Below, piece after piece: positions 18,561 to 26,669 of a stretch of DNA of 34,632 nt. The position numbers and the translations under genes are program-made. Below the pieces are notes generated by a model, which saw only the letters and a program-made list of their open reading frames with translations, was not told the DNA's origin and ran no database searches. Positions within the stretch are counted from its first letter, which is position 1; the number at the start of each line of letters is the position of its first letter. This DNA comes from a virus (Duplodnaviria; Caudoviricetes): positions 1 to 34,632 of IMG/VR virus record IMGVR_UViG_3300033067_000886. One strand, given 5' to 3'.

Positions 18561-18637
18561 TGGTTGCGGGGGTCAGATTCGAACTGACGACCTCGTGGTT
18601 ATGAGCCGCGCGAGCTACCGGGCTGCTCCACCCCGCA
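18561..18637 (-). tRNA. tRNA-Met(CAT), initiator-like
   Basis: Cloverleaf TGCGGGG-TG-GAGC..GCTC-G-CGCGG-CT CAT AA-CCACG-AGGTC-GTCAG TTCGAAT CTGAC-CCCCGCA-ACCA, closely resembling bacterial tRNA-fMet. Confidence 0.93.
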
Positions 18638-23202: not shown

Positions 23203-23323
23203 TGGTTGCCTCCTGGGCTTCTGGGGTTTTGGTGAACGCTCGAATCATACCCTGATCTGGTTCCAGATGCACGCGATTTCCGGTTATCCACCGGGCGATT
23301 TTGGTACCTCCATGGTACCGCCG

Positions 23324-23400
23324 TGGTGCCCTCGGCAGGACTCGAACCTGCAACCGTGGAAGTAGAATTTCCCTGCTCTATCCAGTTGAGCTACGAGGGC
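23324..23400 (-). tRNA. tRNA-Arg(TCT)
   Basis: GCCCTCG/CGAGGGC acceptor stem, A20 in the D-loop, anticodon loop AT-TCT-AC, TTCGAGT T-loop and encoded CCA. Confidence 0.9.
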
Positions 23401-23607
23401 GGCCTACCACTCAATGCGGCCTTTAATCATTTCGGGCTTGGTGCCACGAGATAGAACCCCCGTTAACCTTTCATCCCCAGAGTTACCACTGTCCACAGCT
23501 ACTTACTTAACAACCAGCTTAGAATCTTACTTCTGTGTTTGTTAGACCGTGATTAGCGGGGGCAGTGTGGACAACCTCGGCAATTCCGTTTCCATTTCAA
23601 AGACCTG

Positions 23608-23802
23608 TTACGGAAGTGAGCTTGTGAAGAAAGGATCGTTGGCCGGCCTCGGATAGCCGCGCTCGTCGCGGATGGTGCCAGCCAGCGCGACCATGTGCTG
23701 TCCTTTCGTGGCGCAGAAGATCAGGCCGGGCTCGATCTCCCATACCTCGCGCATGGTGTGACGCCAACCGTCATGGTCACGGTTGCGGCGCTCATTGCCC
23801 AT
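23608..23802 (-). CDS. Hypothetical protein (64 aa)
   Basis: ATG at 23802 with a GGAG SD, overlapping the upstream stop. Confidence 0.5.
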   Translation of the reverse strand: MGNERRNRDHDGWRHTMREVWEIEPGLIFCATKGQHMVALAGTIRDERGYPRPANDPFFTSSLP

Positions 23803-24019
23803 CGGACATTCTCCCGGTGTCAACCGTGAAGGTACCCTCATCGCTTACCTTGGTGACATAATATGTGGTGCGGACAACGCGAGGCGGCCAACTCCATCCC
23901 GATTTGCCCAGGAAATAAAACACTCTCGCCCAGAACGACAGCGGCAGCGGAACGTCGATGGCATCGCCGGCCTTGAGACCGTGGCTGGCTGCCGTGACGG
24001 TGGCAGGTTCAGGCGGCAC
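23792..24019 (-). CDS. Hypothetical protein (75 aa) resembling the HGL..GD beta module
   Basis: TVTAASHGLKAGD...YYVTKVSDEGTFTV. Confidence 0.55.
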   Translation of the reverse strand: MPPEPATVTAASHGLKAGDAIDVPLPLSFWARVFYFLGKSGWSWPPRVVRTTYYVTKVSDEGTFTVDTGRMSDGQ

Positions 24020-24287
24020 GGCGAATAGCCCTTGCGATGCGGCGACCGAACCAGAAGCGCTCGGCGACCTTGGCAGCGGCCTCGACGTGACGGCTTTGGC
24101 GCCAGAATGATTCCATCATGTACCTTTCCTTGACCAGACGAAGGGTCTGGTAGGACTTTTCGAGACGGCGCAGGGTTTTGCGCTGGTTGCGGATGCGGCG
24201 CAGGAGTATTTCGCGCTCTTTGAGCCATGCTTCGCGTTCGGCAGCATGTATCTCCATGATAGCTCGACCGGTCTGTTCAGGCGGCAC
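24009..24287 (-). CDS. Hypothetical basic coiled-coil protein
   Basis: GTG start after a GAGGAGG SD; trimmed from the 277-aa ORF. Confidence 0.55.
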   Translation of the reverse strand: MPPEQTGRAIMEIHAAEREAWLKEREILLRRIRNQRKTLRRLEKSYQTLRLVKERYMMESFWRQSRHVEAAAKVAERFWFGRRIARAIRRAA

Positions 24288-24474
24288 GTTGCGGTTCCTC
24301 CTCGCCAGCATTGATCCACCAGCACCACGTACTGGAGCACTCGTTGAAGTCGGAAAGGCTGGTGGTGCCACAGGACGAGCAGTAGCCCGGCTCGCGCTTG
24401 GCAGGCGCAGCCGGAATCGAACCGGCTCCCTCGGTTTTGGAGACCGATGTGCTACCGGAACACCTTGCACCCAT
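24277..24474 (-). CDS. Possible small Cys-rich protein whose ORF runs through tRNA-Trp
   Basis: GGAGG-N5-ATG start, open through the tRNA, ends in CSSC...CSSTWC; its stop overlaps the next gene. Confidence 0.4.
   Translation of the reverse strand: MGARCSGSTSVSKTEGAGSIPAAPAKREPGYCSSCGTTSLSDFNECSSTWCWWINAGEEEPQRAA
24399..24472 (-). tRNA. tRNA-Trp(CCA)
   Basis: GGGTGCA/TGCGCCT acceptor stem, TCGGT-CT CCA AA-ACCGA anticodon arm, GCCGG TTCGATT CCGGC T-arm, G73 and CCA. Confidence 0.88.
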
Positions 24475-24484
24475 TTTGGCCTCC

Positions 24485-25048
24485 CTACGGCAGGTAGTTG
24501 ATCGTCATCCGGGCCATGTAGATCGCGCCGCTGCCGATCACCTCGTAATAGAAGGCGTGCTGCTGGGCCATCATCAAGGGATCGGTCCAGAGCGCATTCC
24601 ACTTCGCGGTGATGTCGCAGGCCACGAGGCTGGGGCCGCCGATGGCCGGCGGTGCCAGATCGCAGTTCCAGTCGCTCTTGACCACTCTCGTCGCCGGGTT
24701 GGTCGAGTAGTCGTTGTAGAACGACATGAGCCGGACGCGGGCGTTCGACGTGCTGCCGAGGATGGCGAAGGTCACCCAGGCGTTCTTCGCCGGCTTCATG
24801 ATGTCGTTCGAGGACAGGATTTGGAAGAAGCAGGTGAAGCACGCCGCGCTCGGCGTTGGCACCACGGGATAGCCCTGATCGAGGCGAGAGACCCAGATCG
24901 GCGTCCAGACCGGGATGTTGTTGAAGGTGAATGGGCCGTCGGTCGAGCGCGGCGCGACCGGCGTAATGTCCAGAATCAGGTTTTGCGCCGCCTGGGCGGG
25001 CGCAAGCAGGATCATCGCCAGCGCGACGGCCAGCTTCAATATCTTCAT
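24485..25048 (-). CDS. Secreted/periplasmic hypothetical protein
   Basis: Signal peptide MKILKLAVALAMILLAPAQA; AGGAG SD. Confidence 0.75.
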   Translation of the reverse strand: MKILKLAVALAMILLAPAQAAQNLILDITPVAPRSTDGPFTFNNIPVWTPIWVSRLDQGYPVVPTPSAACFTCFFQILSSNDIMKPAKNAWVTFAILGSTSNARVRLMSFYNDYSTNPATRVVKSDWNCDLAPPAIGGPSLVACDITAKWNALWTDPLMMAQQHAFYYEVIGSGAIYMARMTINYLP

Positions 25049-25515
25049 TGTCTTTCTCCTTTGGTGGTGGTTGCGATCAGATGATGATGTTGAGGCGGGC
25101 CATGTAGAGGTAGCAGTCTGGTCGGCTTTGGAAAAAAGGCATCGAGGCGCGCCTCCACCGCCTTGATGCGTTCGATGGCGCCGGCCAGGGTGTATGGCTC
25201 GCTGGGATCGGCCGCGTTGCGCAGCGGCGGCAGATATTCGGGGTCGTTGACCTCGGCGGGGCCGGGCGGAGCCGGGTTGGTGTTGCGCGACGGATCGGTC
25301 ATGTTCAGACTCTTGCGGATCGCAAGGGCGTCGTGCAGCTGGTGGGCCGCGCGGCGCAGATCATCCCAGCGCTCGGTGAACATGACGGTGAGCGCGCGAG
25401 CCACGCCGGCTCGGGTCATGTGGTAGGGTCCGACGTAGCGCTCGATCAGATCGGCGATCTCGTTGGAGGCAACCTCGGCGGATACCTTCTGATTTGGTCC
25501 GAGGTACGGGCTCAT
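25045..25515 (-). CDS. Hypothetical protein
   Basis: ATGA overlaps at both ends; start trimmed to MSPYLG. Confidence 0.6.
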   Translation of the reverse strand: MSPYLGPNQKVSAEVASNEIADLIERYVGPYHMTRAGVARALTVMFTERWDDLRRAAHQLHDALAIRKSLNMTDPSRNTNPAPPGPAEVNDPEYLPPLRNAADPSEPYTLAGAIERIKAVEARLDAFFPKPTRLLPLHGPPQHHHLIATTTKGERQ

Positions 25516-26315
25516 GACAGTTTCTCCGGCTTGCTCTCGACGGCACGCTTGGCGAAGATCGGGATGGTGTCGCCGTCGCCATTCGGGTCGTGCGCGTGGC
25601 GGCGCTCCTCCATGTGAAGGCCATTGAAGCCCCAGGTCTGGCGCAGTTGCATGAGGCGCGTGGCCCAGGCGTGGCGGGCCGCTTCGTCCGGGCTGGCTGG
25701 CGGCATCGAACTCCAATCGAGCATCAGCGCGGCCTCCGATGCCTCGCGCGCGGCCATCACGTCGGCGAACAGGCCGAAGTCCAGACCGGTTGGCAGATGG
25801 GTCAGGCTCGGCAGAACCTTGCGCGGCTCGTCGGTCTCGTCGGCGTCGTAGTCGCAGATGTTGAACGGCATACGCCAGATGCCGAAATCGCCCTTCACGG
25901 CGCCGAAGATGCCGCAAGCCTCGTTGATGCCGACGCGGTGATAGAAGCGGCACGGGCTCCAGCCGGGCAGATCGGCCACGAGCACCTTGCGCTCTTTGTC
26001 CCAGATCGACCAGTCGAGCACATTGCCTGCGGTGTCGGAGCCGAGATTGGCGACGGCCTCCTGCACGGGATCGGCGGCAGGGCTACCCCCGCCGAAGCGC
26101 TCCATCAGTGCGCGGCCCTCGGGACTGTCCTTGGGGAAGATCATCGGCCCGCTGCCTCCGGCTGCCATGCGTTGGAGGATCATCTGTGCGATCGGGTCGC
26201 TCTCAGGCAGCGAGAGGCTGCCGATGCCCTTGATCGGCTTGCCGTCGGCGTACTCGACCTTCGGTGCCGGCGGCGTCCCGCCCAGCATGGTGATGATGCG
26301 ATCCTTCAAGCCCAT
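25512..26315 (-). CDS. Hypothetical protein
   Basis: 267 aa from MGLKDR with a GGAGG SD; contains an LTHLPTG motif. Confidence 0.75.
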   Translation of the reverse strand: MGLKDRIITMLGGTPPAPKVEYADGKPIKGIGSLSLPESDPIAQMILQRMAAGGSGPMIFPKDSPEGRALMERFGGGSPAADPVQEAVANLGSDTAGNVLDWSIWDKERKVLVADLPGWSPCRFYHRVGINEACGIFGAVKGDFGIWRMPFNICDYDADETDEPRKVLPSLTHLPTGLDFGLFADVMAAREASEAALMLDWSSMPPASPDEAARHAWATRLMQLRQTWGFNGLHMEERRHAHDPNGDGDTIPIFAKRAVESKPEKLS

Positions 26316-26378
26316 GGTTTCCCTCCTGTTCAGCAGCGATCGAGCGCTTCGATGGCTTCGAGCCACGCGCGGATGAAT

Positions 26379-26669
26379 TCAGCGAAGCGACGCATTGCGG
26401 TGTTCCTCCTCCCAGCTGTGAATAAGGGCGTTGAGGCCGTAGCCGAACTGCACGGCCCAGCGGTTGGCGACGATCAGCAGGCCCAGCAGCACCCACCAGT
26501 CGCCCCAGATCACGAAGCAGGTAGTGAGCGCGGCGAGCGCGACAAGGCCCAGCCAGTCCATGGTGTCAGGCTCGACCCATGAATAGACGCCAGCCTTGGC
26601 GGCGTCGGACAACAGGAAGCCCAGCGCGTAGCCGAACATCATCCAGATGACGGATAAAATGGTAATCAT
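26379..26669 (-). CDS. Membrane protein (about 3 TM segments)
   Basis: Hydrophobic stretches; ATGA-coupled start. Confidence 0.6.
   Translation of the reverse strand: MITILSVIWMMFGYALGFLLSDAAKAGVYSWVEPDTMDWLGLVALAALTTCFVIWGDWWVLLGLLIVANRWAVQFGYGLNALIHSWEEEHRNASLR

Follow-up and report, generated by a model that had tools for sequence, protein, structure and literature searches.

A complete tRNA-Trp gene is contained in frame within a 65-codon open reading frame (ORF) of the virus record analyzed here, and comparison with related sequences supports dual coding of this locus, that is, selection acting on both the protein frame and the cloverleaf. The most probable reading, to which we give a probability of about 70%, is that one operon transcript would serve as mRNA first and then as a tRNA precursor by the action of RNase P and 3' nucleases, in a passive dual use. 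The new elements are selection on both layers at once and the extension of such an arrangement to numerous unrelated genes that carry an ordinary phage tRNA: one tRNA lineage occurs in a fixed register across unrelated genes, and both dN/dS and covariation were measured, with one orthologous pair.

The window, i.e., the whole stretch of DNA that was analyzed, is a whole virus record of 34.6 kb (63% G+C) with PHROGs matches to major head protein, portal and terminase. DNA of the window is contained in sequencing runs from river, wastewater and sludge. The sole named relatives of the tRNA subtype are one Bradyrhizobium phage and one Bradyrhizobium genome.

Layout of the nested locus

The whole locus is encoded on the minus strand, which was missing from the earlier description of this DNA, and is part of a long minus-strand series of small, closely packed genes. 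The gene upstream of the ORF (24485..25048, minus strand; 187 aa, without family) has an orthologue that precedes the same ORF at a second locus, L248, with a dN/dS of 0.42 between the two; a pattern scan for relatives of this upstream gene returned none, although L248 holds one. Directly after its TAG there is a Shine-Dalgarno (SD) sequence, GGAGG (24480..24484, minus strand), located 5 nt before the ATG of the ORF, with a gap of 10 nt between the upstream stop and the ORF start. The ORF (24277..24474, minus strand) encodes Met, 24 tRNA-encoded residues and a Cys-rich segment. The tRNA-Trp(CCA) covers 24399..24472 (minus strand; 74 nt) and has an encoded CCA end, G1.U72, G73 and an A8/U14/C15 core, and its nucleotide 1 is codon position 3.

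The first-pass annotation had described a tRNA-Trp in frame inside an SD-led ORF, and the main elements of that description were confirmed. ARAGORN calls the tRNA at 24472-24399 and Rfam RF00005 assigns it to the tRNA genes with 51.2 bits (cut-off 29), in agreement with the CCA anticodon and the 3' CCA. The SD at 24484-24480 precedes, as GGAGG-N5, the ATG at 24474 whose G is tRNA nucleotide 1; the frame is open through all 74 nt of the tRNA and continues as AKREPGYCSSC...CSSTWC, for a product of 65 aa; tRNA positions 8-10 fall on one codon, AGG, and the atypical A8, U14 and C15 are present as claimed.

The Cys-rich segment (24280..24398, minus strand; CxxC-x10-C-x4-C) is under purifying selection and is putatively zinc-binding. 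No ATG, GTG or TTG occurs between the end of the tRNA and the first Cys, and therefore a standard start for this half of the protein requires reading through the tRNA. The SD of the next gene (GAGGAGG, 24297..24303, minus strand) is found within Glu codons of the ORF, and that downstream gene (24009..24287, minus strand; 92 aa from the GTG at 24287-24285) overlaps the ORF by 11 nt. The earlier claim that the ORF stop overlaps this GTG, in the manner of other genes of the region, holds for the genes as such, and the next two gene junctions are overlapping as well, but the stop itself shares no bases with the GTG. A 14-nt gene-junction sequence (24275..24288, minus strand) is repeated exactly at the next junction, 24007-24020 (2 matches against 0.04 expected by chance), and could mark cassette gain or loss, because a different gene is found between the equivalent neighbours in L248.

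Two additional tRNAs, tRNA-Met(CAT) at 18561-18637 (initiator-like by eye) and tRNA-Arg(TCT) at 23324-23400, both on the minus strand, provide within-genome negatives, as no in-frame start occurs before either of them; the same was observed for 3/4 examined tRNAs of phage G003. ARAGORN and Rfam give three tRNAs only in the window, and no tmRNA was detected among them, i.e., no tRNA-like domain with a tag ORF and resume codon. In L248, an extra tRNA-Thr abuts the tRNA-Arg.

Selection on the protein frame and on the cloverleaf

L248 is the orthologous locus in another phage and was found by a profile of the Cys-rich part, while the homologous protein P0006 was found by a profile of the tRNA-encoded peptides. 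L248 has the same upstream gene and the same GGAGG-N5-ATG start, with the ATG two codons before the tRNA; the leader of this tRNA is C-A, and therefore RNase P preference cannot explain its ATG. With respect to the window, L248 shows indels of +6, -3 and -3 nt, all three of them multiples of 3, an unchanged position of the stop, and an 11-nt overlap as in the window, but with a different next gene. Comparison of the two loci over the 37 post-tRNA codons gave a dN/dS of 0.26 (Fisher p 0.009), a value derived from one sequence pair in which the SD and GTG of the next gene explain part of the conserved C-terminus. Values were higher in the other forward frames (1.24 and 2.26), and the 0.36 of the mirror antisense frame is as expected. 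Constraint on the tRNA-encoded residues is weak (0.60). In addition, the codon log-odds of the post-tRNA part was 0.13 in frame versus -0.66 and -0.32. A 277-aa ORF in frame -1 was rejected as a true gene (dN/dS 1.24, log-odds -0.66), as was a +1 frameshift into the next gene, for which neither selection in that frame nor a conserved slippery site was found.

Other sequences also bear on the frame. A contig of run X18 can be aligned over 24337-24427 with no gap and differs at 14 positions; among the 10 that are listed (4 of the 14 are not, and codons were mapped by hand) 7 are at codon position 3, one Arg is kept by a double change, and the loose end keeps the last Cys and a Trp in frame. P0006, available as protein only, conserves the peptide encoded by the tRNA as well as the four Cys and the C-terminus, but begins three codons farther upstream, and P0159, also protein only, carries the Cys-rich part behind a different N-terminus. 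The four Cys, in CxxC...C...C spacing, are invariant in 4/4 aligned homologues, and only one Trp column is invariant among them. Conservation of the frame across homologues, which the first-pass annotation had proposed as a check, is thus borne out by the frame-preserving indels and common stop of L248, with which P0006 and X18 agree.

The origin of the ORF by insertion of a tRNA into a small zinc-binding gene, also suggested earlier, is plausible in view of the invariant Cys (4/4) and of a tRNA-free counterpart for a related Lar-type gene (see below), but no tRNA-free orthologue of the ORF was found, as a dedicated scan for such orthologues returned L248 only. Among homologues of the Cys-rich part, P0159 has another N-terminus at the protein level, and none that lacks the tRNA was found at the DNA level. 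A protein search with the Cys-rich 40 aa matched its own protein only, tblastn against cultured phages gave a best E of 6, and Pfam and PHROG returned no significant family for the ORF (best PHROG E 0.011). The best ESM Atlas score was 0.76, and the AlphaFold model is of low confidence (mean pLDDT 57), with values of ~70 at residues 31-50 and <50 in the tRNA-encoded part.

In close strains (runs X15 and X20) the SD GGAGG is lost and the ATG is kept 9 nt after the upstream stop; the changes are clustered in the spacer at 24475-24482, with almost no other change over 341 nt. Contigs from RNA libraries span the SD, the tRNA, the Cys-rich part and the next gene (X19 record 19, 24193-24502; two runs, one study), although they show neither ends nor strand, may derive from DNA and are not proof of transcription.

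The canonical tRNA core has the identities U8-A14 and G15-C48, which are lacking in the window tRNA. Selection on the cloverleaf in nested copies is supported by the behavior of the stems. In nine nested copies (8 distinct), 99.4% of the stem cells are paired and 8 of the 21 pairs are changed on both sides, a covariation that comes from related sequences and does not represent a probability, against 30-48% pairing only in slid-register controls. Compensatory changes are present in three of the four stems, and the CCA end is intact in 9/9 aligned nested copies. In L248 (1428-1501, plus strand) the same scaffold keeps G1.U72 and G73, has a re-paired anticodon stem with a UUG anticodon and is called tRNA-Gln by ARAGORN, an apparent identity switch from Trp to Gln at the orthologous nested locus.

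The tRNA family and its register at other loci

The A8/U14 tRNA-Trp family was set by pattern scans and is widespread and mostly viral among the matches listed, which include 107 distinct sequences. A8 and U14 occur in 107/107 of these members, both bases being fixed by the defining pattern, and C15-A48 in 25/107. The frame used by the ORF is open in 90 of the 107 listed members, and in only 80 of 651 other tRNAs, 404 of which have a stop at positions 8-10. With A8 instead of U8, positions 8-10 no longer read the usual UAG, and therefore the family is pre-adapted to being read in this frame. A8 was not made for the 65-codon ORF, because most members of the family are not nested, and its interpretation as an adaptation to this ORF was rejected.

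The start codon has a similar background in tRNA genes. The optimum reported for bacterial RNase P is A(-2)U(-1), with U(-1)/G(+1) (PMC10731613), and among the 107 listed family members 64 have an AT leader and 33 an ATG at -2..+1, the latter being present in 191/651 other tRNAs. The ATG at tRNA nucleotide 1 was rejected as evidence for nesting, as it matches this optimum and is common in tRNAs. The two clues from which the first-pass annotation had started, this ATG and the open frame, tell by themselves no more than chance, and the ATG position is absent in the orthologues L248 and P0006. The excess over chance comes from comparison, in the post-tRNA dN/dS and in the boundary test given below.

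The family pattern was detected in 2/401 Bradyrhizobium genomes and 1/401 genomes of the order, and an exact D-arm scan of viral contigs gave 0 matches. In an Elusimicrobia MAG (L167, 2113-1208, minus strand) an A8/U14 tRNA-Trp is located between rpmG and secE-nusG, in frame with secE (Pfam), and this chromosomal copy argues that the A8/U14 core would work as tRNA. L165 and L170 resemble this rpmG-secE arrangement by eye.

Close relatives of the window tRNA were found in GC-rich viral, prophage and metagenome contigs (L002, L003/L164/L211, L029, L042, the L171 group and L180), and in all of them tRNA nucleotide 1 is at codon position 3. The ORFs at the related loci start 0-149 codons upstream, mostly with an ATGA or GTGA overlap with the preceding gene. 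The linkage with neighbouring genes was assessed by a boundary test, in which the start had to fall at -12..+4 relative to the stop of an ORF with 30 or more codons, and the stop no more than 12 nt from the start of an ORF with 50 or more codons; loci were de-duplicated and 300 nt on each side were required. A coupled start in frame -2 was observed at 8/8 related loci, against 10/107 other listed family members, 3/20 Bradyrhizobium tRNAs, 8/59 other GC-rich tRNAs and 29/479 AT-richer tRNAs. For coupling at both ends the proportions were 7/8 at the related loci and, in the same order of controls, 5/107, 1/20, 3/59 and 1/479; the contrast between 7/8 and 5/107 (Fisher p 1.4e-7) refers to eight loci that represent seven flank types and are incompletely independent (L171 and L172 share one ORF, and L174 is identical to the window), and to a group that was partly defined once the first loci had been seen, with the L171 group and L180 coming from a pattern fixed beforehand. 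Of the three doubly coupled GC-rich controls, two are nested tRNA-Asn copies of phage G004. At 5/8 related loci frame -1 is open, but it has a coupled start at 0/8, and the both-ends test is passed by 3/96 alternative open frames of the window operon and by 8/20 coding-like frames.

The loci vary in their details. L248 fails the coupled-start test, with a gap of 15 nt, the ORF stop of L172/L173 is far inside the next gene, and the L171 group shows a 36-nt in-frame indel upstream of the tRNA. The flanking proteins differ between loci and none is tRNA-related. In phage G004, a 65-codon ORF (L002, 2995-3192) reads through tRNA-Trp and tRNA-Asn in tandem and a second copy of tRNA-Asn (L186) has its own SD-led, doubly coupled ORF of 59 codons; nesting is not limited to tRNA-Trp.

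Additional proteins were obtained with the tRNA-peptide profile, from the 150 best of 240 matches, most of which look like spurious ORF calls over tRNA arrays; 47 were examined, 44 were scanned with Pfam, and only P0004, P0006-P0009 and P0011 were used, as proteins alone. A dense array of >20 tRNA genes was observed in the Bradyrhizobium jicamae assembly (G001:C49, 113,963-119,599), and one viral contig (L221) shows two different CCA-anticodon tRNA calls ~200 nt apart, at 1787 and 1991 (+).

Several ORFs combine the tRNA with recognizable protein modules. In the Bradyrhizobium phage ppBeUSDA76-2 (L003; OP596614) the tRNA is placed between a Lar-like zinc module (Pfam E 0.0019, a match below the cut-off) and a second module, which in Sphingopyxis phage VSN-002 is fused to a Lar protein without the tRNA (50% identity over 58 aa). 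P0011 has PHROG matches on both sides of the tRNA peptide and P0007 a clear Lar domain upstream of it, so that the Lar-type chimeras (L003, P0011 and P0007) carry the tRNA internally or at the C-terminus. L029 and P0004 agree completely across the tRNA, the 2 residues before it and the 5 after it, and show no similarity upstream; L002 and P0009 have the start and the tRNA only in common; and L171, L172 and L178 have one start in common, each with a different gene directly upstream of it. A tentative reading of these joints, possible rather than likely, is that the tRNA lineage is a mobile in-frame linker module of phage accessory genes, which would combine the roles of tRNA source, protein linker and hub for chimeric genes. 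Recombination inside or beside the tRNA would join any upstream and downstream module with the frame unbroken, because different phages conserve the tRNA and the register in which it is read never varies, and meanwhile the tRNA could change its anticodon, as from Trp to Gln.

Probable use of one transcript as mRNA and tRNA precursor

Maturation of tRNAs by RNase P and 3' nucleases is established biology and is applied here to the nested copy. In the preferred reading, ribosomes would start at the ATG, led by the SD or by re-initiation after the upstream stop, would read the tRNA as an unstructured, sequence-tolerant N-terminal tail or neutral linker, and would then make a small Cys4 domain and stop over the start of the next gene; the operon would thereby stay ribosome-covered and coupled. 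Transcripts that are momentarily ribosome-free or entering decay would fold the cloverleaf and then be processed. A given molecule would have to cease being mRNA in order to yield tRNA, and the division between both uses is likely passive, not regulated. Only in-frame placements would be kept by selection, because any other would cost the domain or the coupling of the operon.

A regulated version of this split had been proposed by the first-pass annotation, with tRNA excision as a switch by which conditions would shift translation against excision and tune the ORF and the coupled downstream genes. In this phage, the start codon itself would be broken by a cut at nucleotide 1 and the downstream genes would be detached by 3' processing, therefore competition is unavoidable by anatomy, and in a predicted fold the SD is paired to the anticodon arm. 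However, this hairpin was rejected, as it is no better than in shuffled sequences (z -0.35) and L248 does not have it; a search for terminators in 23300-26500 was negative, and no promoter was found either; the anticodon differs between orthologues (Trp versus Gln), the Trp codons are not conserved in place, the flanking proteins vary by locus with none being tRNA-related, and the close strains lack the SD. The switch is thus unlikely and was not upheld. Another form of feedback would be a Trp-sensing leader peptide, in which stalling at the W-C-W-W codons would sense charged tRNA-Trp and act on tRNA release or on the downstream genes. Leaders of the trpL/rtpLP type have a conserved run of Trp codons and a terminator or sequestering hairpin. 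The ORF does have three Trp codons within four, just before the SD of the next gene, but this run is not conserved (one Trp column only is invariant), L248 keeps WW and yet its tRNA reads Gln, and neither a terminator in 23300-26500 nor a conserved hairpin was found at the ORF, which makes such a leader barely credible.

It could also be argued that the tRNA is not read through at all, the overlap being due to chance or the Cys-rich peptide being made from a non-standard start, a candidate for which is an ATT of the T-loop, preceded by GAGGGAG in the variable region. The open frame in 90/107 listed family members whatever their context, the frequency of ATG, the loss of the SD in close strains and a tRNA-encoded peptide that is not conserved for its own sake (dN/dS 0.60) would agree with this. 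Its probability is nevertheless low, as L248 keeps SD-N5-ATG independently of the tRNA start, has ACT in place of the ATT and shows 3/3 indels in multiples of 3, and only 3/96 alternative frames of the operon pass the two-sided boundary test. Highly improbable as well is a dead tRNA kept only as coding linker DNA: while the core without canonical U8-A14 and G15-C48 and a free-energy minimum of the window 74-mer that is not the cloverleaf are in its favor, compensatory changes in three of four stems, the intact CCA in 9/9 copies, the anticodon change of L248 with its re-paired stem and the A8/U14 core of the chromosomal rpmG-secE copy speak for a tRNA that would still be functional.

One bacterial precedent was found for a tRNA wholly within a protein gene, namely selC (tRNA-Sec) nested in the selB ORF of Alphaproteobacteria, a bioinformatic prediction that concerns one special gene pair (Mukai 2021, PMC8124441). 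As described in that article, the whole tRNA is on the same strand as the ORF, the frame is kept in relatives and the ORF end overlaps the next start; processing and translation are alternatives, and the evidence is bioinformatic only, as it is here. Its model takes a shift between processing and translation as a regulated balance (PMC8124441). The selB protein, in contrast, binds its nested tRNA, which forms a C-terminal extension of one conserved gene (PMC8124441), whereas the phage loci involve an ordinary elongator tRNA (tRNA-Trp or -Gln) at N-terminal, internal or C-terminal positions of many unrelated small genes, in one register, with the conserved domain downstream of the tRNA. The phage locus is analogous to selC in selB in how it would work, without belonging to that system, as tRNA, position and host genes differ. 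A tRNA-Lys inside cox1 of Armadillidium mitochondria (cited in PMC8124441) is also wholly within the coding region, in direct orientation, and released by processing, but belongs to an organelle under compaction and to one fixed gene pair. For phage tRNAs, a role in compensating for the depletion of host tRNAs has been proposed (van den Berg 2023, PMC10264068); the tRNAs described there are similar in having a sequence unlike the typical host copy and in their small-gene operon, and differ in that 'overlap' is not a term of the main text of that article. Searches of the open-access literature yielded no article that describes in-frame nesting of a tRNA within a phage gene.

The locus offers a short (200-nt) testable model for the sharing of a transcript between RNase P and the ribosome, and the same arrangement is available in an isolated phage, Bradyrhizobium phage ppBeUSDA76-2. 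It is also of relevance for genome annotation, as the masking of tRNAs truncates or hides such genes: the annotated CDS of ppBeUSDA76-2 does not begin until 117 nt past the tRNA, and the record has no annotation for the Lar-like N-terminal module.
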